A stretch of DNA of 64,000 bases from the NCBI GenBank assembly GCA_900540365.1, contig UQFN01000001.1, forward strand, positions 15,944 to 79,943. Direction: 5' to 3'. This DNA comes from an uncultured Mollicutes bacterium (lineage in GTDB: Bacteria > Bacillota_I > Bacilli_A > RFN20 > CAG-826). Shown here piece by piece: positions 9,626-52,001 of this stretch. Made by a program: the position numbers and the translations under genes. The notes below the pieces were generated by a model that saw only the letters and a program-made list of their open reading frames with translations, ran no database searches and was not told where the DNA came from. Every line of letters begins with the position of its first letter. The stretch's first letter is position 1.

Positions 9626-10132
9626 CTATTTATTTTTGACTAAAAAATCAGCAATATCATTATCTAAATAGAGGTAATTTGATAATTTATTATCATTAAT
9701 AAAATATAAAGATGGTGTCCCATATATATAACATTCTTGAGTTGTTGTTGCTCCAATCATTTCTTTTACATATTTGTTAGCATCACTATAACCATAAATG
9801 CTCCCTTTAAAATATGTTAAATCGCTAGGGGAAAGATCAGTTGCTTGTTGCCATTCATATAAATATAATTTGTATTCAAGTCTATTAATTTTATAACTAT
9901 CTAAATAATCTAATAAAGCTCCTTTAATATCTATACAACTTCCACATGCTCTACGAAAAATATATACGCAATATTTGTCTTCTTCTTTATTAAACATTTC
10001 ATCTTGAATTTCCTTTATATAAAATTCTTGATAATCTTCGTATTTTCTATTTAAATGGTCAGTATAATCAGCGCTTGCACAAGCTGTAAGTAAAAAACCA
10101 CAAACAAACAATAATACTGCTAATTTCTTCAT
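9626..10132 (-). CDS. thioredoxin-fold lipoprotein (thiol-disulfide oxidoreductase-like)
   Basis: Signal peptide with lipobox (LLTAC). A CxxC motif lies in a thioredoxin-like context (YCVYIFRRACGSCIDIK) and there is a cis-Pro-like TPSLYF. The RBS AAGGAGG lies 7 nt upstream, directly after the P-type ATPase stop. Confidence 0.6.
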   Translation of the reverse strand: MKKLAVLLFVCGFLLTACASADYTDHLNRKYEDYQEFYIKEIQDEMFNKEEDKYCVYIFRRACGSCIDIKGALLDYLDSYKINRLEYKLYLYEWQQATDLSPSDLTYFKGSIYGYSDANKYVKEMIGATTTQECYIYGTPSLYFINDNKLSNYLYLDNDIADFLVKNK

Positions 10133-13018: not shown

Positions 13019-13074
13019 TAAATATTTTATATAAAATATTTCTTAAATCAATATTAATTTAGGTAATATTGAAG

Positions 13075-13575
13075 ATGTATTTTATTTTTGATAATCTATT
13101 AGAAATGCATATTAGTAAAGCTCAATTTGTATATTTTATGACATGTAATTTTCCTGTCACGTTTTTTATATGCTTAACTTACTCATTATGGGCTTCTTTT
13201 GATATTGATTGGCTTAATTTTTTATATAATTTTTTAATAGGTTATACAATTAGTAATTTTGTTAGTGCATTTGTCCCACTAGTTAAAATTGGAAAATGGT
13301 TTACAAAAAAGTTTAATGTTCCAAATGAAACTTATAGCGGAAATATTAAATATCGTTTATTAGCAGTTTTTATTATAACAATGATTTTCTTTATTTTTGT
13401 AAACCCTGTATTAACTACTTTTAATTATTTTTATTATCAGAAAACTGATCCTCTAGGAGCTTTTCTAGATTGGTTAATTTCATTACCATTAGTATTAGTT
13501 GTTAGTTATTTAGTTAGCTTAGTTTCAGATTTTTTTGCTTATCGACTTGCTAAAAAAATTGATAAAAATTTTTAA
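13075..13575 (+). CDS. hypothetical polytopic membrane protein
   Basis: ORF with about 5 hydrophobic helices. The track start (13069) is a TTG, and an ATG at 13075 (MYFIFDN...) is more likely. This is the only plus-strand gene in the first 19 kb. Confidence 0.5.
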   Translation: MYFIFDNLLEMHISKAQFVYFMTCNFPVTFFICLTYSLWASFDIDWLNFLYNFLIGYTISNFVSAFVPLVKIGKWFTKKFNVPNETYSGNIKYRLLAVFIITMIFFIFVNPVLTTFNYFYYQKTDPLGAFLDWLISLPLVLVVSYLVSLVSDFFAYRLAKKIDKNF

Positions 13576-13608: not shown

Positions 13609-16600
13609 CTAAGGCTTTTTTAATTTAATTTTATTCTCATAAATTTCAAAAGTTTCATTATATTTACGCACAACAAAATTAATTAATTTTTCTAACTTAT
13701 TAGAAACATTATTATTTATAACTTTTAAATTAAATAAATTAGCTAACATTTTGATTACTTCATTTAATTCTAAATCGTTTTGATATTTTAAAATATCTTT
13801 TAAAGCGTTTCTAATTTCAACACTTGAAACAAAAGAAATATCTCTTTGATCGCTTGTACTACTACGATATATTTGATATAAATTTTCATCAAAATTTAAT
13901 GGATAATAAAATGAATCAAAACATTCATTTTTAATTTGATAATTATTTAAAACTGGCATTAAATGTTTTTCAAATATTCTTTCAAATCTTGTTCCAGTTC
14001 GAGAAATATCAAATAATTCTTTAAATCTAGCATATAAAACTTGTTTGGAAATTGGTGCTTCATAATCAATATATTCACTAAGAAGCATACTGAGTCTATT
14101 ATATGTTACATCCTCAATTACAGATTCATATTTATATTTGACATTTGGTACAAACTTCATATATTCAATTTTATTTTGATAAGGAGTAATAACTTCCTTT
14201 TCAAAATTTAAATTAACTGGATTAGTTTTATTTATCGATAAATCAAAAGGAGTTTTAATCGCTCTTAAGATATCAGCAATAACTTCATCCTTATTTTTAT
14301 AGTAATCTAAAGTATAAATACGTAAAATTTTCCAATTTAAACGATCTAAAATATGTGGTTGAACATAATTTCTATCACGACAAGTTAAAGTATTTAAATA
14401 ATTTTTACTATCAAGAATAATACCTAATAAATATTCATTATTAATTCCTTTTATGGCGATATTAATTTTAAATTTGCTATCACCAATATTTAAATCAAGG
14501 TCATAACCAAGTTTAATTAAATCGTTAGCAATGCTTTTTTCTACTCCTTCTTCATAGTTAACAGTTTCATCATATTCACTAATTAAATAATTACCACCAA
14601 GTTCAGCATATTTTAAGAAATCTTTTAAAACTTTAGCGCCATTATTTTTTACTTTATCAACATCGATATCGTTTCCTTTAATTGAGGAATAAATAATCAT
14701 TTCTTTTCTACTTCTAGTTATTGCAACATTAAGTCTTCTTTCTCCTTTTTCTAAAGATAGTGGACCAAAGAAATTATTTAAACGATTATATTTATTTTTG
14801 CTATAACCAATAGAAAATAAAATAACATCTCTTTCGTCTCCTTGAACATTTTCAAGATTTTTAACAAATATTTTGTCTTTATTTTCTTCGTTTTTCTTAT
14901 AAAAAGAAGGATACTGAGCAAATAAATCTTCAATTAAGTCTTCAATTAACTCTTGTTGTTTAATATTAAATGTAATTATACCTATGCTTAATTTAGATAA
15001 GTTTTCATCTGAAAATCTTCTTTTAACTTCTTTAACTATTTCAAAAGCTTCTACTCTATTTACACCATTATCATTAACCCCTAAAGGTAAATATTTAAAA
15101 AATATTTTATTCTCATTATTTGGGCTAGGGAAAGTTAATAAAGAATGATTATAAAAATAGTTATTAGAAAATTTAATTAAAGATTCACTTTCACTACGAT
15201 AATGCCACAATAAACGATTTCGTTTCATATTTAAGGTTAAAGCATCGTCTAGTAAACTTTCTAAATCTTCACATGTATCATCATTTAAAAATTCATCTTG
15301 ATAATTATCGACATTTGTTTTAAAGAAATTTGATGGAGGCATTTGTTCTGGATCACCTGCAATTATTAAACTATTTCCTCTACTAATTGCTCCAAGAGCT
15401 TCGCATGTTTTTATTTGACTAGCTTCATCAAAAATAACAATATCAAATTTCTTATTATCAATACTTAAATATTGAGCTGCACTAAGAGGTGACATAAAAA
15501 ATATCGGGGTAATATTTCTAATAATATCTTCATAATCTTTTAAAATATTACGAATAGAAGTATTTTTACCTCCATTTTTAATTAATTTTAAAAGTTTATA
15601 TACATTAGTTGATTTAGCATATTCAATACTATCTAAAGGGTAGTTTTTAGTAACTCTACTTGCAGTTTCTTTAATTAAAAGGGCATTATATTCATCTAGA
15701 TATTCGTTATATTTTTTAATTGCTTCATTAAATAAAAGTCCATTAAATTCAATAAAATAAGGATCATTAAAATAAGTAGATATAATTGTTTTATAATAAC
15801 TTAACAAATATCTTTGGTGAAGTGTAAATAAAGAAATATCTCCACGACGATAAAGGGTAATTAATGGTTCATAAAATTTATTTTCAATTAATTTATCTAA
15901 TAAAGAATTAATAAGATTTACATTATATATATCTTTAGAATTTTCTATTTGATTATTAAGTAAAGAAATATAATTTTCTAAATAAGTGTTACTTATATCA
16001 AATCTTAATAATTTTGAATTATACCCATATAAATAAGTTAACTTATTTTCAAGATTAATAATTTGATTATGATAATCATTTATTGAAGTTATTAATCCAG
16101 TGTAATCTTTTTGTTTTAATAAATTATAGAAATTTTTAAATTTATTAAAATGAATTAAATAATTATCATCCTTTATGAAAATTTTATTAAAAAGATTTAT
16201 AAAAAGATAAGAAGAATCTAAAGTATCTTTTAAACTGCTATAGTTATAATTAATATCTTCTTTTAAAACTGGAAATACTTTAATTAGATTGTTATTTATG
16301 CCATTCATCAAAGAAATTAAATTAACAGCTTCTTCAATTTTATTTAATAAATTTACATAATTTTTAAAACTAATTTTTAATTTTTTATTTGAGATTTGCA
16401 GGCTTTTTAATGTTTTTAACTGGTTTTTAAATATTTTATGACGTTTAAAATAACCGTTTGAATGATCTAATAACTCTTTTTTAAATAAGGTTACATCCTC
16501 TTTTAAAATATCAAGACGATAATACTTTAATATATCATTTAATAAAGAATTAAGTTTGATTCCTAAATTAATGACTTTATAGTTGTTGCTAATATTTTCA

Positions 16601-19383
16601 ATGAACTCAGTAGTATAAATATTATTAAAACTAACTTCGTGATCTTTAAAAGTATTTAAAATGTTAATTAAAGTTTCAATGTTATTTTTATTTAAAGTTA
16701 TATCATCGTTAATTAAATTAGATAACTCATAAATGCTATTTTTATATTCATTTATAATTAATTTTAATTCTTGAAGATTATCTTTTAATTCATTTAAATT
16801 AATTTCTTTTTTCTCTAACTTATAAGGATAAAAATATTCATCTTTATATTCTTTTCTTGCTGATTCAATTTCTTTTATTGTTTCGATAATTTCTTCAATA
16901 CTTTCTTTATTTTCTTTAGAAAGTTTTAAAGCATCTTCATATTCATCAGAATTTTTAAATTCAAATTCTTTTAAAGAGAAATATTTTGTTAAAGCATCAT
17001 GTAAGCTTATTCCATGAAGATTTGAATTTAACTTTTCAATTAACTTATTTAAATATTCCTTTTTGTTTAATAATTTTTCTTCAACATCTTTTAATTCTAT
17101 TGGACTTTGTAAACGTCCATAATTCAAAGCTTGCTCAATTTGTTCTAAAACATGTCTTTTTGTTGCTTTGTTGGAATGAATTTCTAAACAAAAATCACCA
17201 AGTTTAATATCATCAATACGTTTTTTAACTACCTCAAGAGCAGCCATTTTTTGTGCGACAAATAAGACGCTTTTATGATGATATAAAGCGTTAACAATCA
17301 TATTAACAATTGTCTGTGATTTTCCAGTTCCAGGAGGACCATCTAAAACAAAACTTACATTATTAATCGAATCTTTAATTGCTTTTATCTGACTACTATC
17401 AGCACCTAAAGGAATTGCTAAATCAGTTAATTTTGTATCATCTAATATTTCATCTTCTTCGTTTTGATAAGGCGTCTCTTTAACTAAGCGCTTAATAAAA
17501 TCGTTTTTAAGTAATTCATCTTTTCTTAAATTTAAATCATTCCATAGTATTTGGTTACTAAAAGTAAAATTAGAAATAAAAGCTTTTTTCTCATCAAGTA
17601 ATAAGGAACAACTTTTTGAAGTTCTACTTCTTATAAAATTAAAAATTGAATTGATGTTTGTTTCGGTAATAATTTTTTTATTTATATCATATATATCATC
17701 AAAGCTAATTCCACTATTTAATTTAATGAACTCAAATACAGTCGTATTAAGAAGTAAATTATCAATATCAACTTCTATTTCAAAAGCATCTAAAGATTTT
17801 CTTAACTTAGATTTTATAGGAATTAATAAAATTGGAGCATTAAAAGATTTAACACTATTTTTTAAAGTGAATGTTAATAAACCTAAAGCTAAATAAAGTG
17901 CATTACTTCCAGTTTCTTCCATAATGCTATTAGCTTTTCTAATTAATTTAATATATGTCTTATCATCAATCGAAATAGGATAAATATTTTTTTCTATTAG
18001 ATATAAATAATCATTTTTAACATTTTCAGTTATAAATTCATTTTTGCTTAGCTTTAAATTAAGAGGAAAAACTTTAATTACATTATTTTCACTAATTTTA
18101 CTAAAAAGATTTTGAATACTATCTATAACAACTTCGGCAATATTATTGCCATAACTAAAATTAATTAATTTATTTTTTAAGCTGAGATCTAAAAGCTTTT
18201 TTCTCCAATAGATGAATTTATTGTTGTCTTTTGCGGTCCTTTCATATATCAATCCATCACCATCGGTTTTCTTGTTAACAAATTCATGATTCAAATTATT
18301 TTTAAAATAAACATCAACTTTATTCTCATTTATTACTTCATAACTAGGTATAGGTTTAACAAAAGAATGATGTAAATTTGATATATTTAAAGCTGTAAAA
18401 TTTTTAACATAATTTTCTAAATGTTTTCTTGCACTTTCATTAGCTTCATTAAAACTAACATTCTTTCCAAGAGTAAACGATGTAGTTTCGACAAGTTCAA
18501 TTTTCATATTGCCTAATGTCGAATAATTATATATTTTTCCAACATCATTAATAACATTTTCAATAAAACGATCTTCACTTAAAAAAGCACCTGCAAAAGC
18601 GTGTCCTTCAATAATAACTAATATCGGTGAAATTCCTAAAACTTCTAATATTGAACAATATAAAATACTTAAATCTAGGCAAGTCCCTAACTTAGTACTT
18701 AAAACAGTATTTGGTAATCTTACTCTTTGAAATTTATTAAATGAACTTGGCGGATTTAAATAAGCAATGTTTTCTTTAACTAGCGCATTATAAACTGCGC
18801 ACATCTCTAAACGAACACTATCTATATCGTTAGCTTGATAGCCAATAAAATTTGGATTAGAACTTCTTAAAAGTTCTAATTCTTTTGTTGCTTTATATAT
18901 TAAATTAGTTATATTTGGATCGTTTGGTGTAACAAAACTAGCTAATAAACTTAAATTTGATGAAATACTATTTGATTCATTAAGGGGAAATAATGAATAA
19001 GGCAAATTAACTTCATTTAAAATATCATTTTCTAAATTTACTAATTTTACATTTAAAATTAACGGGATACATTCACTTAAAAAATATAAATCTTTAACAT
19101 TAAAATTAATTGAAATATTTTCACTAAATTTAACAATACTTTTCGGAGTAATTAAAGAAATATTAATGTCATTTATTTTAATTAATTCAGTATTTGTATC
19201 AAATATTAACTTTAAATCTTTAAAGTATAGATCAGATTTATTTTCAATAATAATTTCCTTAATAAAAGAGTATAAAGTTGTTTTCAAAGTGTTTGATTTT
19301 AATTTGATAAAAGCATCAGCTTGATAATTAAGATAATCGTACTCATTATTAAGATCAATATTTACTAAGATATTTTCATTCAT
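13609..19383 (-). CDS. giant DUF4011-like / Upf1-like (AAA_11/AAA_12) SF1 helicase fused to a DUF559 (Vsr-like) endonuclease domain and a C-terminal DUF3320-like region
   Basis: 1924-aa uninterrupted ORF. Helicase motifs present are motif I (DGPPGTGKSQT), motif II (IFDEASQ), GDPEQMPP, motif V (VQGDERDVILFS) and motif VI (VAITRSRKEM). Downstream is a DUF559-like block (KINIAIKGINNEYLLGIILDSKNY...RDR...WKILRIY). The N-terminal ~650 aa includes LYLALGLLTF, typical of DUF4011. Confidence 0.8.
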   Translation of the reverse strand: MNENILVNIDLNNEYDYLNYQADAFIKLKSNTLKTTLYSFIKEIIIENKSDLYFKDLKLIFDTNTELIKINDINISLITPKSIVKFSENISINFNVKDLYFLSECIPLILNVKLVNLENDILNEVNLPYSLFPLNESNSISSNLSLLASFVTPNDPNITNLIYKATKELELLRSSNPNFIGYQANDIDSVRLEMCAVYNALVKENIAYLNPPSSFNKFQRVRLPNTVLSTKLGTCLDLSILYCSILEVLGISPILVIIEGHAFAGAFLSEDRFIENVINDVGKIYNYSTLGNMKIELVETTSFTLGKNVSFNEANESARKHLENYVKNFTALNISNLHHSFVKPIPSYEVINENKVDVYFKNNLNHEFVNKKTDGDGLIYERTAKDNNKFIYWRKKLLDLSLKNKLINFSYGNNIAEVVIDSIQNLFSKISENNVIKVFPLNLKLSKNEFITENVKNDYLYLIEKNIYPISIDDKTYIKLIRKANSIMEETGSNALYLALGLLTFTLKNSVKSFNAPILLIPIKSKLRKSLDAFEIEVDIDNLLLNTTVFEFIKLNSGISFDDIYDINKKIITETNINSIFNFIRSRTSKSCSLLLDEKKAFISNFTFSNQILWNDLNLRKDELLKNDFIKRLVKETPYQNEEDEILDDTKLTDLAIPLGADSSQIKAIKDSINNVSFVLDGPPGTGKSQTIVNMIVNALYHHKSVLFVAQKMAALEVVKKRIDDIKLGDFCLEIHSNKATKRHVLEQIEQALNYGRLQSPIELKDVEEKLLNKKEYLNKLIEKLNSNLHGISLHDALTKYFSLKEFEFKNSDEYEDALKLSKENKESIEEIIETIKEIESARKEYKDEYFYPYKLEKKEINLNELKDNLQELKLIINEYKNSIYELSNLINDDITLNKNNIETLINILNTFKDHEVSFNNIYTTEFIENISNNYKVINLGIKLNSLLNDILKYYRLDILKEDVTLFKKELLDHSNGYFKRHKIFKNQLKTLKSLQISNKKLKISFKNYVNLLNKIEEAVNLISLMNGINNNLIKVFPVLKEDINYNYSSLKDTLDSSYLFINLFNKIFIKDDNYLIHFNKFKNFYNLLKQKDYTGLITSINDYHNQIINLENKLTYLYGYNSKLLRFDISNTYLENYISLLNNQIENSKDIYNVNLINSLLDKLIENKFYEPLITLYRRGDISLFTLHQRYLLSYYKTIISTYFNDPYFIEFNGLLFNEAIKKYNEYLDEYNALLIKETASRVTKNYPLDSIEYAKSTNVYKLLKLIKNGGKNTSIRNILKDYEDIIRNITPIFFMSPLSAAQYLSIDNKKFDIVIFDEASQIKTCEALGAISRGNSLIIAGDPEQMPPSNFFKTNVDNYQDEFLNDDTCEDLESLLDDALTLNMKRNRLLWHYRSESESLIKFSNNYFYNHSLLTFPSPNNENKIFFKYLPLGVNDNGVNRVEAFEIVKEVKRRFSDENLSKLSIGIITFNIKQQELIEDLIEDLFAQYPSFYKKNEENKDKIFVKNLENVQGDERDVILFSIGYSKNKYNRLNNFFGPLSLEKGERRLNVAITRSRKEMIIYSSIKGNDIDVDKVKNNGAKVLKDFLKYAELGGNYLISEYDETVNYEEGVEKSIANDLIKLGYDLDLNIGDSKFKINIAIKGINNEYLLGIILDSKNYLNTLTCRDRNYVQPHILDRLNWKILRIYTLDYYKNKDEVIADILRAIKTPFDLSINKTNPVNLNFEKEVITPYQNKIEYMKFVPNVKYKYESVIEDVTYNRLSMLLSEYIDYEAPISKQVLYARFKELFDISRTGTRFERIFEKHLMPVLNNYQIKNECFDSFYYPLNFDENLYQIYRSSTSDQRDISFVSSVEIRNALKDILKYQNDLELNEVIKMLANLFNLKVINNNVSNKLEKLINFVVRKYNETFEIYENKIKLKKP

Positions 19384-19609
19384 ATATTTATTATATTTGA
19401 TTTTACCTTTATATAAATAAAATATTTAATAAAAATTAAATATTTTTCTTATTAAATAATTTTTAAAATTTGTCACTTAAAAAATAAAATTTAAGCTTTT
19501 TCAAAAGAGGAAATTTAAAAAATATTACCTTTTTGCAAGGTTTTTTAGAATTTTAACGACTTTATTTATACATATTTATTTTAAAGTGTTTTTGTTTTAT
19601 ACTTTCTTT

Positions 19610-20230
19610 ATGAACAATAAAAACGAAAATAATACGAACTACAAATATAAACTAAATATTTTAATTTCACTCTGTTTAATTTTATTAATAATTATTTGTA
19701 TATTAATAGCATTCATTCTTTTTGATAAACGCTTAAATCAATCTAATGATGAAGTTAAAGATTTTATTGATAATATTAGCCTTGATGTAACATTAAATGA
19801 CACTAAAGAAATCGATGTCACTATAAAAGAAACAAGCTTAGATGTTGATGTCTTCATTTCAAGAGTTGATACAAGTAAACTTAAATATGATTTTAAAGAT
19901 AATTTAAATAATAGAAATTACTATTTATATTTTGATGATGAAACTTCTGCTTACGTAAGTAATATCTCTAATTTAGATTATTCTAATAATGAAGTTGTTA
20001 GTAATTACATAAATGACTTATTTGAAACTTATATCGAAAATTATTTATTTTATGAGTCGAAATTAAATAATTTAAATCTCAATAATTTAAATTATTCCTT
20101 AATTGAATCAAATAAACTATTAATAAAAGATAGTGATGAAAATTATTTATTAATTAACGATTATGGATTAATTATAGAAGAAAAGTTAAATAATAGTTCT
20201 CTTAATGGAAATTATAAATTTGCTAATTAG
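19610..20230 (+). CDS. hypothetical membrane-anchored protein
   Basis: ORF with a single N-terminal TM (ILISLCLILLIIICILIAFILF) and an Asn/Asp-rich ectodomain. The start is uncertain (19586 or 19610). It overlaps convergently with the ABC exporter stop. Confidence 0.45.
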   Translation: MNNKNENNTNYKYKLNILISLCLILLIIICILIAFILFDKRLNQSNDEVKDFIDNISLDVTLNDTKEIDVTIKETSLDVDVFISRVDTSKLKYDFKDNLNNRNYYLYFDDETSAYVSNISNLDYSNNEVVSNYINDLFETYIENYLFYESKLNNLNLNNLNYSLIESNKLLIKDSDENYLLINDYGLIIEEKLNNSSLNGNYKFAN

Positions 20231-41635: not shown

Positions 41636-43495
41636 TTAATTTTTGTTTAATTTTTCTTTTAAATAATTTCTTAATGATTCATCTTCACAATAAATGTAGC
41701 AGCCTTTAATGCCTCTAGTTAAAAGTACTTTGTAAGTTCTTCTAATTAGTTTATCAGCTTCTTCATTTGAAGTACTTTTTAATCTAATTCCACTTGTCTT
41801 ATCATCTTTTGATATTGCATTACGTTTTGTTTGTACATGACCATCTTTATAATAGAGATCTTTACCAATAAAAACTCCGACATAATCAAATTCCATTCCT
41901 TGGCATGTATGAATACAACCTATTTCTTCAAAAGAATTAGGATTTACTGCCCGATGGTCATCGTTAGCTAAATTCCATTTTGCTTTAAAACCATTTGGAA
42001 GAATAATGTCCCAGTCACCTTTGTTATTTTTAACATTCCAATCATAACAATAACCTGCAATCATTCTAGCTTTGTTATTTATTTTATTTAATTCTCTTAA
42101 TTCATCTCTCATTTTGATAGGATCATCAAAAACCTTAACTTTAAGATTATTAAATTCAAAATTTGTATTAGCTGTTTGCTTAATTTCTAATAAATTATTT
42201 AAAAAAGAAATATAACCATCACTTCCATCACATCTAAATTGAGAAGTTAATTCATAAGGTTTATGAATAATTGCATTTTCTTTTTTAGCATACATAATAA
42301 TTGAATTTACATCATATTTATCATTAATAGTAATTCTTTGGTCATCATCAACAAAAAATATTGAAACTTTACTTGCTTTAATAGCATCTCCAAGCATGTC
42401 GTTACCTAAATATCTATAAGGTTTCTTTTGCATACGATGAGCTTCATCAAAAATACCTACATCAAGTCCGTTATATATCGTATTAGGTAAACACCATGGA
42501 GATTGAATTGCTTTTTGAAGATTAACCATCTTTTTAGCATTGCCTTTTGCTAATAAATTAGCATAACACTTTCTTGGAGCCATATTTTTTGTTATATAAG
42601 AAGCATTTAGTTTTAAATCTATAATACATCTAGCTAATATATTAATTGCTAAAACTGATTTCCCAGTTCCTGGCCCTCCAGTAATTATAAGAACATGCTT
42701 CCTTGTGTCATTTTGAGATTCTTTGATTGCTTTCATGATTTTATCATAAGCAACTACTTGTTCATCAATCATATGAAATTCTTCATTTCCACAAAGCATT
42801 GAATCTAAAGCACCTTGAAGAGATTTAGTAGGTTTTAATCTTCCTTCTTCAATTTTATAAAGCAAAGAACTATCATTTGCTTTTAACTTTATATAATTTT
42901 TAATAAAGTTTCTTAATTTTAAAACATCACTTTGCAAAAATACTGGGGCTTCTTCTATCCATTCATGATATAAGTTATCTTCAATAACAGGACGATATTC
43001 TTCACTTAAATTGTGTAGATATGCACATGGTTTTAAAGTCTCATTATTAATAGAAACAGAGTCATTACAATAATCTAATATTAATTGTTTATAAGAATAA
43101 GCTTGATATGAAGGGTGAGCAACAGGTTCATGGCTTCTTAAATCAGACATTATTGAATGATCACAATTATCATCAACTTTATTAACTCTAGCCCATTGTT
43201 TTAATTCAATAATAACAACATGATCTTCATCATTGTTATTACCCACAGTCATAAAATCAACACGTTTAGAAGTTTGAGGAATATTATATTCAATAGCAAC
43301 TTGACATTCGTTATCAAAATAAAAATCATCTAAAACATCTTTCATAAAGTGTAAAGAATTATTCCATGAATTTATTTCACTAGCTGATCCTCCACTTAAG
43401 CCTTTCTCTCTAAGTGTTTTTAAAAGAATACTTTGCATCATATTGAAAGTAACATCAGTTCTAAAATCTTTTAATGACTTATTATAAATGATCAT
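41636..43495 (-). CDS. PD-(D/E)xK nuclease-like N-domain fused to DUF2075-type (Schlafen/SF1 helicase-like) P-loop ATPase
   Basis: N-terminal restriction-endonuclease-like motif (RVDFMTVG ... VVIIELKQW, i.e. D...E-x-K). Walker A (ITGGPGTGKSVLA), Walker B (IFDEAHRM). Helicase motif V-like (IHTCQGMEFDYVGVFIG) and motif VI-like (VLLTRGIKG). Confidence 0.7.
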   Translation of the reverse strand: MIIYNKSLKDFRTDVTFNMMQSILLKTLREKGLSGGSASEINSWNNSLHFMKDVLDDFYFDNECQVAIEYNIPQTSKRVDFMTVGNNNDEDHVVIIELKQWARVNKVDDNCDHSIMSDLRSHEPVAHPSYQAYSYKQLILDYCNDSVSINNETLKPCAYLHNLSEEYRPVIEDNLYHEWIEEAPVFLQSDVLKLRNFIKNYIKLKANDSSLLYKIEEGRLKPTKSLQGALDSMLCGNEEFHMIDEQVVAYDKIMKAIKESQNDTRKHVLIITGGPGTGKSVLAINILARCIIDLKLNASYITKNMAPRKCYANLLAKGNAKKMVNLQKAIQSPWCLPNTIYNGLDVGIFDEAHRMQKKPYRYLGNDMLGDAIKASKVSIFFVDDDQRITINDKYDVNSIIMYAKKENAIIHKPYELTSQFRCDGSDGYISFLNNLLEIKQTANTNFEFNNLKVKVFDDPIKMRDELRELNKINNKARMIAGYCYDWNVKNNKGDWDIILPNGFKAKWNLANDDHRAVNPNSFEEIGCIHTCQGMEFDYVGVFIGKDLYYKDGHVQTKRNAISKDDKTSGIRLKSTSNEEADKLIRRTYKVLLTRGIKGCYIYCEDESLRNYLKEKLNKN

Positions 43496-43836
43496 AATTT
43501 AGTATATTTATTTGCTTTTCCTTTACACTTTTCTATTGGATATTTTAATTCATTTTTATCTAATTTATTATTAATAATTTCATCTTCATCTAAATTAAGA
43601 ACATCTAACATATTTTGACAATAAATTAATACATCCGCTAACTCATCTTTAACTTCATTTACATCAAAATCATTTTCATTCCATTGAAAACATTCTAATA
43701 ATTCATTAGACTCAATACTTATTGTTTTTGCTAAATTTGCAGGAGTATGAAATTTGTCACAATCTCTGTCTTTGGAAAATTTTTTAATTCTATCTTTTGT
43801 ATCTTTGTTCATATGAAAATTGTAATCTTTTTGCAT
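43492..43836 (-). CDS. MazG-like nucleotide pyrophosphohydrolase (RS21-C6/DCTPP1-like all-alpha NTP-PPase)
   Basis: 114 aa. Matches the family along its length: KFHTPANLAKTISIESNELLECFQW...VKDELADVLIYCQNMLDVLNLDEDEIINNKLDKNELKYP. Its stop overlaps the DUF2075 gene start by 4 nt. Confidence 0.8.
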   Translation of the reverse strand: MQKDYNFHMNKDTKDRIKKFSKDRDCDKFHTPANLAKTISIESNELLECFQWNENDFDVNEVKDELADVLIYCQNMLDVLNLDEDEIINNKLDKNELKYPIEKCKGKANKYTKL

Positions 43837-43966: not shown

Positions 43967-45421
43967 ATGAAAGTCGATTATTCAAAATTGTGGAAGTTGT
44001 TAATAGATAGAAAAATGTCCAAAACAGAATTTAGAAAATTTGCAGTAATAAGTACTAGTACACTTGCAAAACTCGGTAAGGAAGAATTGGTAAGCCCAGA
44101 GGTACTGACTAAAATATGTAGGGCACTAAATTGTGATGTCAAAGATATTCTTACTTTTGTTAAAGATGAACAAGAAATTATCGATACCGCTAAAGACAAG
44201 AATAAATACAAGGTTATATCATTATTTTCTGGCGCTGGAGGAATGGATCTTGGTTTCGTAAATGCAGGTTTCCAAATAATTTGGGCAAACGATATTTTTA
44301 AAGAAGCTATCGAAACTTATAAAAAAAATATTGGAAATCACATTGTATTTGGGGATATAAGTATGATATCAAGTGATGATATACCTAACGATGTTGATGT
44401 TGTTATAGGCGGATTCCCTTGTCAAGGGTTTTCAATTGCAAATAAAAACCGAAGTATGAATGATAAAAGAAATTTTTTATACAAAGAAATGCTTAGAATT
44501 ATTAAAGATAAAAAGCCAAAAATGTTTGTCGCTGAAAATGTAAAAGGCTTGTTATCAATGGAAAAAGGCAAAGTTTTCGATATGATTAAAAAAGACTTTG
44601 AATCTCTGGGATATTATGTTGAAGCTAAAATATTAAATGCTGCCGAATATGGAGTTCCTCAGCAAAGAGAACGCTTAATTATTATAGGAAATAGAATTAA
44701 CAAGTCCGTTTCTTTTCCAATAAAAACACATTACTTAAATAATGATAATAGTAATAAAAATCTTAAACCAGCAGTTGCTACAGAGAAAGCAATTGGTTGG
44801 CTTGCAAATATAAAATGTCAAGAAAATCCAATTATTCTGAAAAATGGTAAAGTAGTTTATCAACATATTGCTCTTGAAAATGTTGCCGATAAATTTTGGG
44901 GAAGAAAATATCCAGTTGATCAAAGTGAACTGTGCGATTACTTAGTATTTTGGAAGAAAAAAGCTAAGATAAGCACTAAAGAAATAGATAGATTGCTCGG
45001 CTATAAATTTACAGCTGGTCATTGGTTTAGAAAAGACAATAATAGTGGTAGCATCCCGACACCAGATGATTGGTGGAAACTAAAAAAAATACTAAATTTT
45101 GATGATAAATTTGATAAGGAGGTTACAACCTTAATCGAAAAAAAAGTTTCATTTGAGCAATCGCTGAGAATTACAAATTGGGATCGACCAAGTGATACAA
45201 TCACAGCAACAAGTCCTGAGATCCATATTAATAAAAAGAGAAGATTAAGTGTCAGAGAATGTGCAATATTGCAATGTTTCCCTGAAGATTTTATATTTTA
45301 TGGTTCAACAATAGGTGTTATGTATAAACAAATTGGCAATGCAGTTCCTGTTAAACTAGCATATGAGATTGCGATGTGTGTAAAATCAGAATTAGAAAAA
45401 TCTACTTGTCTTTTAAACTAA
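43967..45421 (+). CDS. DNA (cytosine-5)-methyltransferase with N-terminal XRE-type HTH
   Basis: HTH at residues ~1-60. m5C-MTase motif I (LFSGAGGMDLGF), motif IV (GGFPCQGFSIANK), motif VI (ENVKGL) and motif VIII (QQRER). After a variable TRD come C-terminal motifs IX-X (RLSVRECAILQCFP..., GNAVP). Confidence 0.9.
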   Translation: MKVDYSKLWKLLIDRKMSKTEFRKFAVISTSTLAKLGKEELVSPEVLTKICRALNCDVKDILTFVKDEQEIIDTAKDKNKYKVISLFSGAGGMDLGFVNAGFQIIWANDIFKEAIETYKKNIGNHIVFGDISMISSDDIPNDVDVVIGGFPCQGFSIANKNRSMNDKRNFLYKEMLRIIKDKKPKMFVAENVKGLLSMEKGKVFDMIKKDFESLGYYVEAKILNAAEYGVPQQRERLIIIGNRINKSVSFPIKTHYLNNDNSNKNLKPAVATEKAIGWLANIKCQENPIILKNGKVVYQHIALENVADKFWGRKYPVDQSELCDYLVFWKKKAKISTKEIDRLLGYKFTAGHWFRKDNNSGSIPTPDDWWKLKKILNFDDKFDKEVTTLIEKKVSFEQSLRITNWDRPSDTITATSPEIHINKKRRLSVRECAILQCFPEDFIFYGSTIGVMYKQIGNAVPVKLAYEIAMCVKSELEKSTCLLN

Positions 45422-46445
45422 TACTTTTAACCCCATCCCATCTTTCATTATGTGAATCGTATCTCTCAATAAGGCTCAAATTAGAAATTCGATTTGTATG
45501 GCCTTTATTTACAGCTTCAAGATAATATTCTTTTTTTGAGGAAATTTTGTTGACTTTTCTTGAAACTGGAAACCATGATACACCACTTGTTTTGTATATT
45601 GGATGTACTTGTTTTGAATTAAAAGCACCTTTTTTAGATCTTCCGTTGATAAGCTGGAAGTCAGGAAATTTATTTATATAATTTTCGATCGAATCTAATA
45701 CCTTTTCGCTATCATCAGTAAGATAAATTGGTTTGAATCCTTGTTTAATATCAAAATAACTATAGGTCTTAAAATTTGAGATCAAATCATAATCAAATAG
45801 TGGACTTAAGATACCGTTTGGCAAACATTTTAAGTAAATAGTATTAAAAGAATCGCCTCTGTATAATTGAAATTTTTTACTATCATCTTTGTAGACAATA
45901 ACCAAAAAATATGTCAAAACAGGTAGTAATTGACCATTATTGAAACTAAACTCTTCAGGTAACAGTGTTTCCACTTTTATGCCAGAATTTTTAATATTTG
46001 GATCAGTATCTAAATTAATATTATGAAAAGATGACTGATTACTTTCAAACTGTAAATTATTAATGTCACCCTTGTTTCCTTTGTAATCCAATGTTTTTAC
46101 ATCAACATTAATAACAGCATCTTTAGTAATAAAAGCAATGTCAGAAGAAACTGGCGATGGATATACATTTAAAATAAAGTCGCTTAAATATCTATAGATA
46201 TAAAATCTTGTAAGTCTTTCGGCAGGTATTTTTATTTTGTTTTTTTCATCCCAAACTTTTGTTAGAAAATTGTAATTTTTTTGTATTTCCTTTTCGATCA
46301 GCTTTAAATCTTTTATAAAAGATGCTGATGTAAATAGCGAATAAAGAATGTCGAAATATTTCTTTTCAAGGTCTAATACTTTTTTCATTTTATCGACATT
46401 ATGTTTTTTTGGATCAATTTGATAAATTTTTTTCTGTGTACTCAT
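45402..46445 (-). CDS. putative Type II restriction endonuclease (cognate of the C5-MTase)
   Basis: 347-aa ORF convergent with the MTase and overlapping it by 20 nt. No family motif recognised. The assignment rests on the classic convergent R-M gene arrangement. Confidence 0.5.
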   Translation of the reverse strand: MSTQKKIYQIDPKKHNVDKMKKVLDLEKKYFDILYSLFTSASFIKDLKLIEKEIQKNYNFLTKVWDEKNKIKIPAERLTRFYIYRYLSDFILNVYPSPVSSDIAFITKDAVINVDVKTLDYKGNKGDINNLQFESNQSSFHNINLDTDPNIKNSGIKVETLLPEEFSFNNGQLLPVLTYFLVIVYKDDSKKFQLYRGDSFNTIYLKCLPNGILSPLFDYDLISNFKTYSYFDIKQGFKPIYLTDDSEKVLDSIENYINKFPDFQLINGRSKKGAFNSKQVHPIYKTSGVSWFPVSRKVNKISSKKEYYLEAVNKGHTNRISNLSLIERYDSHNERWDGVKSISLKDK

Positions 46446-47575: not shown

Positions 47576-50500
47576 CTCATTTGTTCGAATGCTTCATCTA
47601 AATTTTGTATTTTCCCGATTGTAAATTCAAATAAACCAATAATTGATTCATAATCTTTAACTGCACTATTAGGTATTCTAATTAATTTTATATTGTATTT
47701 AGCACAGATTTCTTCTTTTTTCTATCTCTAAGAGCAGTTTCTTTACTACCAACATGTTCACCACCATCAATTTCAAAAGCAACTATTGTTTTATATTGAC
47801 GATTAAATAAACCTCCACTAACTTGAACTATAACATCAAATTCTTTCATACCTATTTCTTTATGGTCAAAATAATTTACATTTTTAATAGCTTTTTCTAC
47901 AAGTACATTTCTTTCAATTCTAAATTTAGATCCTCGACGATTAAAATAAGGTTTAATAGTTTCAAAAAACTCCCTTTCGCTTTTTGAATCATTTGAAAAA
48001 TCATAATTAATAACTGCTTCACTTTGAGGAACACTAATTTCTCCGTTACCAAAAACATAATCTGAAAGAGCTTTAATATCATTAGTGTCGTTTTTACTTA
48101 AGGCATCAATTGCTTCTTTATCTCCAACAAAAATAAATTTATTTTTTGCTCTAGTAACTGCAACATTAATTAATTCATAATTATTTTTAATCCAACCCAT
48201 TGTTCTTTTTGCGGTTTTTAAAGATAAGGCTGAAGACATAATAATTACTGATTTTTCTTAACCTTGTAAGGTATGAACTGTACCAGCTTTAACATCTTCT
48301 ATTCCAAATTGTTCTAAATATTCATTAATTAAAGCTGCTTGGTTAACAAATGGAGTTATTATTCCAACATCCTTATAATTATTTTCTTTAATAATTTTTG
48401 CTATTTCATAAGCTTCTTCATTATAGGAATTCCTTAATTTAGCTTTAGATGTATTTTGAACATTTACATAAACTAAATCACCTAAATTTTCATTAAGTAA
48501 CTTAAGTTGTTTCTCATAAAATCTTTGATTAACAAAACTTGCAATTCTTTTACCGCATCGATAATGGTATCTTAATAAGATACATTTCGAATTATTATCT
48601 TTCTTTAACATTAAAGAAAGAATTGAATTTCTAACATAGTTATATTCTTTACTAATGTTATATTTATTCATTAAATCAAAATTAACATCATTTTCAATTA
48701 CGGTAACTGGTTGCAGTTGATTTGTATCTCCTACTAATAATAAATTTTCTCCTCTAACAATAGGAATTAATGAAGATGCAATATTGCATTGTCCTGCTTC
48801 ATCCATTATTACTAAATCAAAATGATTAGTTGCACTTCCTAACTTTTCTGAAGATAAATTAGTAGATAAAATAATAGGAAAAATAGACAAAAAACGTCTT
48901 AAATTCAAGTTATTTTTCAAAAATTTATTAAATTTAGAAACTGCAATATTCTCATCTTCAAGTGCAATAATTTCCCTTAATTCCTTAAAAGTTGGACCTA
49001 ATAATTTCTTATATCTTAAAATTGATGAGTAATATAAAAAATTGTGAAAATCTAAATCATCAAAGACTGATTTTGTACATTTAAATATATCTTTATCAGT
49101 AATATTTTTACTTGTGTTTAATTTATATTTATAAAGTTTAAGTTCAGATTCTAATTTCTCATTAATTTGATTAATTGATATAAAATCTTTTAATTTTCCA
49201 AGAGTATTGATACGCTCTTCTAAATCTAATTTATTTTCATATTCTATTAATAACTTTTTAAGTTCATTAAAGTTTGATAATGATTTATTTTTATTATCTT
49301 CAATTAGATTATCATATGTCTTTACATCTTGATTTTTTGATATATAAGTAAGTAATTCTTTTAACTTTTTAATCGTGTCAAGCATTTCAATATTATTTCC
49401 AATACGAATCATTGGAAAAATAATTTCTTGACTACTATTTTTAAATTTAAAAGACTCAATCATCTTTTTATAAATATCAATAACAGGATGATTGTTATTT
49501 GAACATACTAAAACTGTTTTATTATTTGCATAAGCAGATAATAAAACATTAAATATAGTTTCTGTTTTACCAGTTCCTGGTGGCCCTTTAACATAAGTAA
49601 TATGATTAACCATTGAGTTATAAACTACCCTAAGTTGATCAATATTTATTTTATTTTTATTAAATACAACAATATTTAAATCTTTATCTTTGTTATTTCT
49701 ACTTCTATTTCGACCAAAAAAAGCTTTCAAAGGTGTAGTTAATTTATTTTCTTCATCTAGTTTTTCAATAGATTCAATTGCATCACTTACACCATTTAAA
49801 CAATTTCGAAATAACAAAAATATTGATGGAGTCGTATCTATTCTTTCGTTATGATGAAAATTTTCTTTAATTAATTCTTTATATTCATTATATTTTTCAT
49901 CAAAGGTAGAACAAAAATCTTCAGAAGAAATTCCATCTAAATACATTCCTAAAGTAACTCTTTTTCTTTCAGAAATTAAAAAAGAATTATTAATAGAAGA
50001 TTTTTTGGCTACATGTAATGTTTTATCTAAAAAATTTAACTCTAATTCACGATATGCAATAACATATTGCTTTCCATCAATATCTATTGAAAGTTTATTT
50101 AAAGCAAGTGTAGCAAAGCGATTTTTTTGTTTAGCTTCTTCATAAGAAACTTTAAATACTTTATCTAATAAAATATTAAATTGATTATCATCTAATTGAT
50201 AATTAGAAGATTTAGAAAGTGTATAAAAATCAATATCATCAATTAAAGCTTTATCTTTAACGTAAGGGTCATTATCTAATCGATAACATTCTAATAAATA
50301 TTCTAAAATATTATTATCAAAATTAACTACATCAAAATAAGCATAAAACGCCTTATCATTTTTAATTTTAGTTTTAAGATTTATAGGAATTTCGTAGTAA
50401 CTATTTTCAATAATCCTAGCAGATTTAATTCCTGAAAATTTAATATAAGTGTCATTTCCTTTTTTTAAAAGATGGTCAGTTTTAAAAGGATTAAAAATAT

Positions 50501-50648
50501 CACAATAAATGATTTCTTTTTTAATATCTACTGCTTTTATTCCAATATAATAATTAGTAGACTCATTATTCCTGTTTAAATAAGAAACTGCGAGCCATTT
50601 ATTACTAATAATTGCTTGATATATTAAGTTCTTTATCGATAATTTCAT
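47576..50648 (-). pseudogene. Upf1-like (AAA_11/AAA_12) SF1 helicase with C-terminal DUF559 (Vsr-like) endonuclease domain, disrupted by in-frame TAA and a poly-A frameshift
   Basis: Helicase motif I (KGPPGTGKTET), motif II (VIMDEAGQ), and motif V (TVHTLQG) followed immediately by TAA at 48258-48260. The same frame resumes (EKSVIIMSS...VAVTRAKNKFIFVGD, motif VI). A DUF559-like domain follows (IVAFEIDGGEHV...RDRKK). It ends in the 47688 ORF, but a frame change in the A-run near 47712-47722 gives a native-looking tail (EEICAKYNIKLIRIP...EQMSLFEE*) ending at 47576. Confidence 0.7.
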
Positions 50649-51030: not shown

Positions 51031-51990
51031 TTATTTCTTCATTTCCACTAAAGGAATGTTGTTTTCATTGCAATACTTGCGAATGGCTTCTTTATTTTCG
51101 ACTGAAGCGTCAACTCCTAAGATGATCTTTTTGATCTTTGGCGCAGGAGTTCTAGTGTTTGCGTCTCCTAAAATTCGCCACTCGTTTTGATACTCCCACT
51201 GCTTGTATTTAGTTATAAACAGTCTTAAATATTGAGAAGTGTCTGGCTTTATTTGATGGCTCGACATGCCGAATACCATTTGTCCTATGAAATTAGCCAC
51301 TATAGACATCACAATGTTCGTTTCTCTTTCGTCTTGATAAATTACAGGAAACAATATGTTTGGTGTCTTAAAATCGCTAAAATCATATTCGACGCAATAT
51401 CCACTATTCTTGCCAGCATAGTTCTCCCACATGTATTCATTATCAGCATCCTCACAAAGTGAACAAATACCCATTTTTTGTCTTGCTTCATAAGCTCCAA
51501 GAATTAATGTTTTTATTTGTTCATTCATTCCAGGTTCATCAAGCTTCTGAGGAATATTGACCAAGTAATTAACGATGGGAGCTGTGTTAGCACCAGGGAC
51601 TAGCTCATCTATTTCTGGTTGAATATCCAAAAGATGATTTGGTCTAACGGTTCCGTTTCTATTTAGAATCTGACTAATCAACAGCTGTATTTGCTCAAAG
51701 TTCTCTTTGCTTGTATAAGGCCTAATAAATTCCATTATTTGAAAAACACACTGTCTCTTTAGTCCATCTTTCTCTAAGTCATACAAGTTTTGCATATTGA
51801 GGGATGTCATACATTCAGTAGGATCATCCAACTTCTCAGCAACGCATAAGAAAAGATATTTGTTTTCAAACATGTCGAATGTGTGTTCATCAAACGGTCT
51901 ATATTTGAAAAGAGACGCAGGCCCTTTATAAGACGCATCTCTATTCATCAAAATATAGTTAATATAATAAAGCCTTTCGTTATGGTTCAT
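51031..51990 (-). CDS. DUF2971-family protein
   Basis: The N-terminal signature (SLFKYRPF...ENKYLFLCVAEKLDDPTECM) is consistent with DUF2971 (LYKYRSF...fNDPfE). 319 aa, immediately downstream of hsdR. Confidence 0.5.
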   Translation of the reverse strand: MNHNERLYYINYILMNRDASYKGPASLFKYRPFDEHTFDMFENKYLFLCVAEKLDDPTECMTSLNMQNLYDLEKDGLKRQCVFQIMEFIRPYTSKENFEQIQLLISQILNRNGTVRPNHLLDIQPEIDELVPGANTAPIVNYLVNIPQKLDEPGMNEQIKTLILGAYEARQKMGICSLCEDADNEYMWENYAGKNSGYCVEYDFSDFKTPNILFPVIYQDERETNIVMSIVANFIGQMVFGMSSHQIKPDTSQYLRLFITKYKQWEYQNEWRILGDANTRTPAPKIKKIILGVDASVENKEAIRKYCNENNIPLVEMKK

Positions 51991-52001
51991 AAATCATACT
52001 A

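Follow-up and report, generated by a model that had tools for sequence, protein, structure and literature searches.

A divergent, chromosomally inherited ProA/PDC-S37 family protein of Candidatus Onthovivens with asparagine at the beta2 position of its nuclease-type domain

Results

A single 1924-aa ORF on the minus strand

We analysed a 64,000-nucleotide stretch of DNA (the window) from Candidatus Onthovivens, a small-genome gut bacterium. Positions 13609..19383 of the minus strand hold a single unbroken ORF of 1924 aa, with an ATG start and a TAG stop. Its GC content is 22%, the window ranging from 21 to 35%. The first-pass annotation had reported a very large intact ORF at this place, and the frame is indeed open from end to end. 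A P-type ATPase gene flanks it on one side and ABC exporter/MntP genes on the other. Genetic code table 11 suits the window, giving 46 long ORFs with the stops TAA (32), TAG (10) and TGA (4). An Rfam search of the window returned no RNA family, and a promoter/terminator scan found 60 sites where 67 were expected, which is no signal in this AT-rich DNA.

The features of the ORF are as follows.

13609..19383, minus strand: the whole ORF, a divergent ProA / PDC-S37 family protein (ORF listing, NCBIfam, PADLOC)
18979..19383, minus strand: residues 1-135, beta-sandwich (Ig-like) domain (AlphaFold model, Foldseek)
18349..18966, minus strand: residues 140-345, transglutaminase-like (papain-like) domain (Pfam below cut-off, Foldseek, conservation)
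18679-18681, 18601-18603 and 18487-18489, minus strand: Cys235, His261 and Glu299, the transglutaminase-like triad
17731..18198, minus strand: residues 396-551, DUF4011 (Pfam 78.2 bits, cut-off 22.2)
17149..17418, minus strand: residues 656-745, first part of helicase domain 1A with Walker A GPPGTGKS at 682-689 (Pfam AAA_11/AAA_19, motif)
15514..17148, minus strand: residues 746-1290, a 545-aa insertion in helicase domain 1A (composition, conservation)
14614..15513, minus strand: residues 1291-1590, remainder of domain 1A (motifs II, III) and domain 2A (motifs IV-VI) (Pfam AAA_12, PDB matches, motifs)
14257..14541, minus strand: residues 1615-1709, Vsr/DUF559-type REase fold, MTES_1575 (Pfam 61.9 bits, cut-off 38.2; model)
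14461-14463, minus strand: Asn1641 in place of the beta2 Asp (column counts)
13612..14166, minus strand: residues 1740-1924, two winged-helix domains, DUF3320 region (model, Foldseek)

Pfam, sequence matches in the PDB and Foldseek upheld the annotated domain string of DUF4011, Upf1-like SF1 helicase, Vsr/DUF559-type REase and DUF3320. The beta-sandwich and the transglutaminase-like module in residues 1-345 had been overlooked.

The N-terminus carries a beta-sandwich and a conserved transglutaminase-like module

In the AlphaFold model of the N-terminus, residues 5-131 are all-beta (pLDDT 89.6), and Foldseek matched this beta-sandwich to RhoGDI, HAP2 domain 3 and pilus chaperones. The domain that follows scored slightly under the Pfam cut-off for DUF553 (E 6e-4) and Transglut_core (E 5e-3), and its Foldseek matches were 3kd4 and the PNGases 2f4m/3esw/1x3w. 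Cys235 and His261 are each kept in 117/117 sequences; position 299 is Glu in 110 of them, Asn in 6 and Asp in 1. The modelled helix begins at residue 235, His261 opens the strand 261-267, and Glu299 stands one residue beyond the strand 295-298. A Cys at a helix N-terminus is followed by a His and an acidic residue on later strands, all conserved, as in papain-like domains. The corresponding domain of MTES_1575 is annotated 'Transglutaminase' (PMC3710099), and our literature search found no report of a test of the module's role.

The helicase core is complete and split by a large insertion

Pfam placed AAA_11 at residues 662-867 and AAA_12 at residues 1375-1566. The SF1 motifs I-VI can all be read from the sequence, as had been claimed: GPPGTGKS at 682, DEASQ at 1319, GDPEQMPP at 1343, HYRS at 1394, QGDERD at 1514 and RRLNVAITRS at 1549. 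Searching the PDB by sequence, we matched the core to IGHMBP2, Sen1 and Upf1; no other solved structure was detectable in this way. These Upf1-like SF1B helicases have the motor core in common with the window protein, but they are eukaryotic RNA/DNA helicases without the nuclease, the transglutaminase-like module, DUF4011 or the 545-aa insertion. That insertion is rich in L, N, K and I, is poorly conserved (33-47% identity in relatives) and gave no match in a Pfam search, whereas residues 656-745 are 78-92% identical in relatives that share 42-59% overall. In the same comparison, the beta-sandwich, insertion and tail evolve faster (30-51% identity) than the helicase core (66-92%).

The nuclease-type domain has lost the beta2 aspartate

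The first-pass annotation had looked for the REase fold at residues 1250-1450, which belong to the helicase; the domain lies at 1615-1709. The DUF559/REase-fold support on which that annotation made its reading depend was found there, both by the Pfam profile and by model-based searches. The predicted core runs alpha-beta-beta-beta-alpha-beta, and Foldseek matched it to 3hrl (TM(target) 0.73, rmsd 3.0) and to 3r3p / I-Bth0305I (0.73). In PD-(D/E)xK and Vsr-type enzymes, the acidic residue of beta2 is a metal ligand. The window protein has Asn1641 instead and thereby lacks this ligand. Of 118 relatives, 95 have Asp in this column, 22 have Asn and one has Ser; Asn or Ser is confined to the window protein's own clade, throughout which the Asp-to-Asn change is fixed, down to 41% identity. 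Going by this residue, the nuclease of the window protein is possibly weakened. Asp1658 and the invariant Asp1670-Arg1671 are kept, and the position of the canonical DUF559 Glu is hydrophobic across the whole family. The REase domain is 50-72% identical in relatives, against 42-59% for the whole protein.

The tail is modelled with pLDDT >90 throughout, and its Foldseek matches are tandem winged-helix proteins: UFL1/DDRGK1, the Rpc5 tWHD, the Roquin ROQ domain and cullin WH-B. DUF3320 scored 21.1 bits at residues 1762-1800, below its cut-off of 25, and 23.6 bits with the tail scanned alone. The 'DUF3320-like' label stands as a match below cut-off, and the two winged helices of the model are an addition to it.

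The protein belongs to the ProA / PDC-S37 family, with Hhe as sister family

The NCBIfam model ProA (NF058533, 'anti-phage protein ProA') scored 1296.4 bits, under its equivalog cut-off of 1500. The match is colinear in one stretch, residues 38-1886 against profile positions 9-1901 of 1903. In PADLOC, where six families matched at E <= 0.01, PDC-S37 (PDLC05009) aligned residues 388-1904 with profile positions 8-1533 of 1550 (E 3.5e-263, 874.9 bits). Two relatives scored 1413 (P0012, also below the ProA cut-off) and 1524 (P0033), while relatives of about 30% identity (a Klebsiella plasmid copy, P0101 and P0085) passed it with 2205-2279 bits and matched PDC-S37 as well. The window protein shares with this family a colinear full length of ~1920-1960 aa, a single-gene unit and the domain order: beta-sandwich, transglutaminase-like domain, DUF4011, split SF1B helicase with a large insertion, MTES_1575 REase and two winged helices. 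It differs from the members that pass the cut-off by its ~30% identity and by the change of the beta2 Asp to Asn.

The annotation had guessed at an Nhi/Hhe-like protein. Hhe is indeed the next-best family in NCBIfam and PADLOC, and ProA / PDC-S37 is its sister family. Membership in Hhe itself was rejected: the NF042953 score of 591 bits falls far short of the 2000 required, with its best stretch at residues 1160-1711, and the best PADLOC Hhe stretch was 1233-1710. As in the window protein, a single chain of ~1800-1900 aa combines DUF4011, a Upf1-like SF1 helicase and a Vsr-type endonuclease in Hhe (PDLC02194, NF042953), and the two are clearly homologous across helicase domain 2A and the REase (residues ~1160-1711; E 4.7e-177 and 3e-125). 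However, Hhe matches in two stretches, nothing like the end-to-end match of ProA. Hhe is said to be the single-gene system of Gao et al. 2020. It protects E. coli, and the nuclease-site mutation E1731A abolishes protection (bioRxiv 10.1101/2022.06.16.496414). Hhe thus needs a Glu, whereas the ProA family is hydrophobic at the canonical DUF559 Glu, E1731 itself not being placed by the alignment. Nhi was likewise rejected, its PADLOC models not being among the families matched at E <= 0.01. The Staphylococcus Nhi protein shares the concept of an SF1 helicase and a nuclease in one protein but is much shorter (470 positions in its PADLOC profile), and the Nhi-like match in the window is a different gene, 41636-43495.

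A computational study of 2013 had already described this architecture (Anantharaman et al. 2013, PMC3710099). MTES_1575-type proteins have a transglutaminase domain, an SF1 helicase, a novel Vsr REase and two wHTH domains in the same order as the window protein, whose order we had worked out from the models independently of that study; for MTES_1575 the last are given as '2 wHTH, overlaps DUF3320' (PMC3710099). MTES_1575 itself is longer, with its wHTH at residues ~2006-2161, and carries an extra HEPN RNase domain, for which Pfam gave no match in the 1924-aa protein.

The gene lies outside the defence island, is inherited vertically and is under purifying selection

A real defence island occupies 41.6-58 kb of the window, and the 1924-aa gene lies outside it. 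As had been noted, the island's smaller helicase-nuclease gene (47688-50648) is decayed and the large one intact: the former has one in-frame TAA within helicase motif V (TVHTLQG*EKS) and loses its frame past a canonical DUF559 motif, FEIDGGEH..RDRKKK. A genetic code of table 4 or 25 was rejected as the cause of this apparent decay, since the gene is interrupted by TAA and not by TGA, and table 11 yields the 46 long ORFs. The smaller gene had been called paralogous. It has only the helicase motifs in common with the 1924-aa protein (29-33% identity over ~280 residues), which makes it a member of the same superfamily but not a close paralogue.

The gene order at this locus, HAD-MFS-GDPD-MntP-ABC-ABC-gene-156-aa membrane protein, recurs around an orthologue of 53% identity, whose neighbours are 61-85% identical. 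The window gene is vertically inherited and under purifying selection: dN/dS against strain L089 is 0.084, equal to that of the neighbouring ATPase, and dS is similar to that of the flanking genes, which speaks for a functional gene in this species. Its 90% cluster has 128 members, compared with 88-229 for core neighbours. Full-length proteins (1922-1924 aa) make up 11 of the 15 cluster members listed; the rest of the list includes an allele cut to 900 aa by a frameshift and two fragments from short contigs. The 14-bp frameshift allele was seen in one conspecific strain, 97.8% identical.

In related small-genome Bacilli the gene occupies different sites: immediately downstream of rpsF-ssb-rpsR, or 8 nt downstream of ftsZ with ileS following, co-directional with those genes in both cases, and after a GGGtGRT gene. 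Homologues in uniformly housekeeping contexts had been named as evidence against an immunity role. Housekeeping or metabolic contexts are found in 7/7 close relatives and largely at 46 distant loci, where only a handful of the 148 immediate neighbours matched defence models, but they do not extend family-wide, given the plasmid copies between IS elements and the PDC-S nominations. Beyond the Onthovivens clade the family is patchy. It occurs on 513 plasmid records, 217 of them conjugative, and the Klebsiella plasmid copy is flanked by IS1, IS3 and Tn3. The phage collection yielded only one full-length relative, on an unannotated 11-kb 'Bacteriophage sp.' contig. The frameshifted strain, the plasmid copies and the differing insertion sites show the dispensability and mobility typical of defence genes.

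Clustering 995 neighbour ORFs from 81 loci all-against-all, we saw no neighbour family that exceeded 7 loci or kept a fixed position. A conserved partner gene is thus absent family-wide, as expected for the single-gene PDC-S37. The convergent 156-aa membrane protein was rejected as a partner, being conserved in Onthovivens-like relatives only. PDC-S systems have candidate status only and were nominated from their embedding in BREX, DISARM or type I R-M systems; here that adjacency is absent, the type I R-M system being 32 kb away. While the window gene is chromosomal and syntenic with housekeeping flanks, other ProA / PDC-S37 copies are plasmid-borne or inside R-M/BREX loci.

Discussion

The 1924-aa protein is probably a divergent, chromosomally fixed member of ProA / PDC-S37, a stand-alone helicase-nuclease in a single polypeptide, from the sister family of the validated Hhe. 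As the family is catalogued as single-gene anti-phage proteins, the window protein would be an ordinary member of it. Our literature search located no primary paper for ProA or PDC-S37, so a putative anti-phage role is drawn from the family name and the sister family. DNA may be held by the pair of C-terminal winged helices together with the Vsr-like domain, and the Upf1-like SF1B motor, driven by ATP, would translocate 5'->3' on one strand of DNA that is invading or has an abnormal structure. Canonical members of the family would cut this DNA with their Vsr-like domain. The N-terminal beta-sandwich with the Cys-His-Glu transglutaminase-like domain could act as a sensor or as a second effector on a protein partner. 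With Asn at beta2, DNA cleavage is probably weakened or lost in the Onthovivens clade, so that protection would rest mainly on the motor and the transglutaminase-like domain.

An unlikely alternative is a ProA-type protein recruited as a housekeeping helicase to genome maintenance (R-loops, protein roadblocks, replication-transcription conflicts, cf. Sen1/IGHMBP2) that no longer needs its nuclease. Conserved synteny, the co-directional sites beside rpsF-ssb-rpsR or between ftsZ and ileS, a dN/dS equal to the ATPase's, a cluster size akin to that of core neighbours and the clade-wide Asn all speak for it. A large DUF4011 gene is moreover a core gene in every P. aeruginosa isolate, a likeness drawn by DUF4011 alone (PMC10250203). 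On the other hand, a 97.8%-identical strain carries the frameshift, the family is patchy, plasmid-borne elsewhere and bears an anti-phage name, and the domains outside the helicase core evolve fast. Related lineages also carry the gene at different sites, a pattern that resembles separate insertions more than a core gene inherited from their ancestor.

Somewhat less likely still, the protein might be a fully active Hhe-type nuclease-helicase, Asn1641 being non-catalytic and invading DNA being cut as by canonical members. The retained Asp1658 and Asp1670-Arg1671 and the better-than-average conservation of the REase would fit, and the departure of the whole family from the DUF559 ExDG motif suggests a non-canonical active site. 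Yet the substituted residue is the metal ligand of PD-(D/E)xK and Vsr-type enzymes, and the 95 relatives with Asp set the exceptions apart as one clade. We consider a functionless, decaying relic like the smaller island gene very improbable: the low GC, the lost nuclease Asp and the frameshift in one strain would suit it, but the selection data (dN/dS 0.084) already contradict it, the 5.8-kb frame is still open in an AT-rich genome, most listed cluster members are full length, and no helicase motif or residue of the Cys-His-Glu triad has been lost.

Returning to the ProA / PDC-S37 member that we favour, a bolder proposal for its clade is rather doubtful: that in these small-genome gut Bacilli a ProA-type protein, fixed beside core operons with its nuclease ligand lost and under strong purifying selection, works without DNA cleavage, either as a domesticated genome-maintenance motor or as a transglutaminase-effector immunity protein.

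As a family member, the window protein adds little, given the architecture described in 2013, the PADLOC model and the NCBIfam 'anti-phage' name. What is unusual is its stable inheritance among housekeeping genes in a small-genome gut bacterium and the loss of a key nuclease residue. It offers a natural comparison of nuclease-Asp and nuclease-Asn clades within one defence family and draws attention to the invariant transglutaminase-like Cys-His-Glu module. It also shows that very small genomes can retain genes of this kind by vertical inheritance and selection, outside defence islands and so out of reach of island-based discovery.

Domain order and family of the helicase-nuclease

The gene at window 13609..19383 (-) is one open reading frame, 1924 codons long, that begins at an ATG and ends at a TAG, uninterrupted as the first-pass annotation had claimed. 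Its GC content is 22% in an AT-rich window (21-35%). The standard bacterial code fits the window, which is tiled by 46 long ORFs with TAA (32), TAG (10) and TGA (4) stops. Pfam searches gave the following domain order.

Residues 396-551, DUF4011
Residues 662-867, AAA_11
Residues 1375-1566, AAA_12
Residues 1615-1709, REase family MTES_1575 (61.9 bits versus a cut-off of 38.2)
Residues 1762-1800, DUF3320 (sub-threshold)

The full set of SF1 motifs is present, and the Upf1-like helicases IGHMBP2, Sen1 and Upf1 were the only solved structures found by sequence. Together with the Pfam matches, this shows that the domain string initially proposed is correct. However, the REase had been placed at residues 1250-1450, which are helicase. 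Residues 746-1290 form a poorly conserved L/N/K/I-rich insertion within helicase domain 1A.

PADLOC identified the protein as PDC-S37 (E 3.5e-263) over almost the entire profile. Hhe came second as a partial match, best over residues 1233-1710, and Nhi gave no match in the PADLOC search. The NCBIfam profile for anti-phage protein ProA matched end to end at 1296 bits, under its curated cut-off of 1500, while NCBIfam Hhe reached 591 bits versus a cut-off of 2000. Thus, of the earlier Nhi/Hhe-like label, a partial likeness to Hhe is retained, but the best family is ProA/PDC-S37. Relatives of about 30% identity, including a Klebsiella conjugative-plasmid copy, score 2205-2279 bits for ProA, above the cut-off. 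Since these relatives are PDC-S37 too, the profile matches indicate that ProA and PDC-S37 are the same family, with our protein as a divergent member. A word-indexed search found at least 970 family proteins, nearly all of about 1920-1960 aa, and at least 592 family loci were confirmed in GTDB species genomes of many phyla. The N-terminal module alone occurs in 3598 representative clusters.

The PDC-S candidates were nominated by 'guilt by embedding' and stated to be untested. Hhe is a validated single-gene system, in which protection requires a Glu of the nuclease domain (bioRxiv 10.1101/2022.06.16.496414). The literature search turned up no primary paper on ProA, and therefore the anti-phage label of the family rests here on the NCBIfam name.

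Terminal modules

An AlphaFold model of residues 1-390 (57 homologues, mean pLDDT 89.6) revealed a module unremarked in the first-pass annotation, made up of a beta-sandwich at residues 1-135 and, after it, an alpha/beta domain at 140-345. The latter matches Pfam DUF553 (E 6e-4) and Transglut_core (E 5e-3), both just under threshold, and, by Foldseek, the transglutaminase-like protease 3kd4 and PNGases. Across 117 sequences, Cys235 and His261 never vary; at position 299, 110 sequences have Glu, 6 have Asn and 1 has Asp. The model puts Cys235 at the N-terminus of a helix, His261 at the start of the next strand and Glu299 immediately beyond the strand after that, which is the layout expected of a transglutaminase-like fold.

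The model of residues 1591-1924 (pLDDT 87.3) shows a typical alpha-beta-beta-beta-alpha-beta nuclease core and a tail of two winged-helix domains. The core superposes both on 3hrl, a DUF559 protein, and on I-Bth0305I, a Vsr-like homing endonuclease (TM 0.73, target-length normalised). MTES_1575 has been described as a transglutaminase, SF1 helicase, novel Vsr REase and two wHTH domains overlapping DUF3320 (Anantharaman et al. 2013, PMC3710099). This is the order of our protein, except for an additional HEPN domain in MTES_1575. In the representative search, some relatives are longer (2040-2250 aa), with 130-330 additional residues before the beta-sandwich/transglutaminase module; these are probably HEPN-fused, MTES_1575-type versions.

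Selection and genomic context

Compared with the allele of a conspecific strain (L089, 97.8% identical), the gene shows a dN/dS of 0.084 and a dS of 0.080; the adjacent ATPase has a dN/dS of 0.091, and the flanking genes have dS values between 0.066 and 0.129. The low dN/dS, with dS within the flank range, indicates from sequence comparison that the gene is functional here and was inherited with its flanks. The L089 allele itself lacks 14 bp near codon 1020 (ENA ERZ16268171 scaffold_291, deletion at 9990-10010) and is thereby broken into two ORFs, of 1021 aa and 900 aa, so the gene is dispensable in at least one lineage. Identity among relatives is 66-92% in the helicase core, 50-72% in the REase, 42-65% in the transglutaminase-like domain and just 30-51% in the beta-sandwich, insertion and tail.

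The gene is flanked by a P-type ATPase and, at its other end, by two ABC exporters and MntP. One of the neighbouring proteins has identical entries under Candidatus Onthovivens sp., which are also labelled 'Mollicutes bacterium'. The locus of a 53%-identical orthologue (L082) keeps the gene order of the window (HAD, MFS, GDPD, MntP, ABC, ABC, the gene, a convergent 156-aa membrane protein), with neighbours 61-85% identical. Other relatives, of 41-59% identity, are found at different places: immediately behind rpsF-ssb-rpsR; between ftsZ, which ends 8 nt earlier, and ileS; behind iPGM/GGGtGRT, in two species; or amid genes of sugar metabolism.

The conserved 156-aa multi-pass membrane protein (13105-13575, +; a TTG start at 13069 is probably too early) converges on the gene and adjoins its homologues only in Onthovivens-like relatives (L081, L082 and L089). 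Within the 843-nt upstream spacer (19384-20230), the opposite strand has an Asn-rich ORF (19586-20230, +) whose product starts with a single transmembrane helix. In L089 this ORF has been called as a gene of 230 aa; at L082 it is absent and the gap measures 150 nt. At another relative's locus (L083), downstream of rpsF-ssb-rpsR, a DUF1848 gene (13787-14677) overlaps the ProA homologue at its stop codon, by 4 nt. A core DUF4011 gene of P. aeruginosa has been reported beside a radical-SAM gene (PMC10250203).

No recurring neighbour family was found among the loci of distant relatives. At 46 such loci, the 148 genes no more than two positions away are mostly housekeeping, with scattered defence matches (Wadjet, AriA, HEC-01A, Csn2 and a single reverse transcriptase). 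The first-pass annotation had considered that uniformly housekeeping contexts would speak against defence. Such contexts do hold for the close relatives and for most neighbours in the distant ones, but the family also occurs in 513 plasmid records, of which 217 are conjugative. In Klebsiella, IS1, IS3 and Tn3 flank the copy, which adjoins an AbiJ-like gene.

On balance, we consider it probable that the gene encodes a divergent ProA/PDC-S37 stand-alone defence-type helicase-nuclease, chromosomally fixed in the lineage and acting as an SF1B translocase. The main rival is domestication to a housekeeping genome-maintenance role, favoured by the genomic contexts, synteny and selection. We regard it as unlikely; the frameshift allele, insertion sites that vary between lineages, plasmid-borne relatives and the family's anti-phage label all stand against it.

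The defence island

The defence island at 41.6-58 kb is real, and the gene lies 22 kb away, outside it as first described. The island holds the following genes.

41636-43836 (-), Schlafen-group-3-type helicase, 619 aa (41636-43495; PADLOC matches PDC-S41, AbiO and Nhi), and a 114-aa MazG-like ORF
43967-45421 (+), HTH-fused C5 cytosine methyltransferase
45402-46445 (-), 347-aa ORF, convergent with the methyltransferase; no match in Pfam or PADLOC
47688-50648 (-), SF1 helicase with a canonical DUF559 endonuclease tail (FEIDGGEH..RDRKKK); best PADLOC matches Mokosh MkoC/MkoA
51031-58243 (-), DUF2971 protein (PADLOC PDC-S31) and, directly adjoining it, a complete type I R-M system, as follows
52002-55043 (-), type I R
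55003-56247 (-), type I S
56240-58243 (-), next gene of the type I R-M system

The Nhi-like match in the window thus belongs to the 619-aa helicase. Its gene and the 114-aa MazG-like ORF overlap by 4 nt, and so may form a two-gene unit. The 347-aa ORF may encode the restriction enzyme that pairs with the methyltransferase, and the DUF2971 gene is in an 'embedded candidate' situation. The gene at 47688-50648 is inactivated by an in-frame TAA within helicase motif V (stop 48258-48260) and has lost its frame at the C-terminus, which confirms the decay seen at first reading. As a supposed paralogue of the 1924-aa protein, it shares the helicase motifs and nothing else.

An altered nuclease site

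The acidic residue of strand beta2 binds metal in PD-(D/E)xK and Vsr-type enzymes. Of 118 relatives, 95 have Asp at this position (KIDIG), 22 have Asn and one has Ser, the Asn and Ser cases being exclusively our protein's closest relatives (homologues P0002-P0024 except P0012). Because the metal-binding Asp is replaced, we infer that DNA cleavage would be weakened or lost in this Asn1641 clade. The protein keeps Asp1658 (Asp in 110 of 118 relatives) as well as Asp1670-Arg1671, a pair that is invariant or nearly so. At the position of the canonical DUF559 Glu (ExDG), the whole family has a hydrophobic residue, unlike the decayed island gene with its FEIDGGEH. A nuclease fully active despite Asn1641 seems doubtful to us. 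That the gene is a dead relic is contradicted by the selection data and can practically be dismissed.

As a defence-type helicase-nuclease, the protein would be an SF1B translocase, powered by ATP, that works on DNA which is foreign or aberrant, with the Vsr-like domain and winged helices engaging this DNA and the transglutaminase-like module serving as a sensor or second effector. It is a newly added, divergent member of an already known family; only its location among housekeeping genes and the Asp-to-Asn change across its clade go beyond cataloguing.
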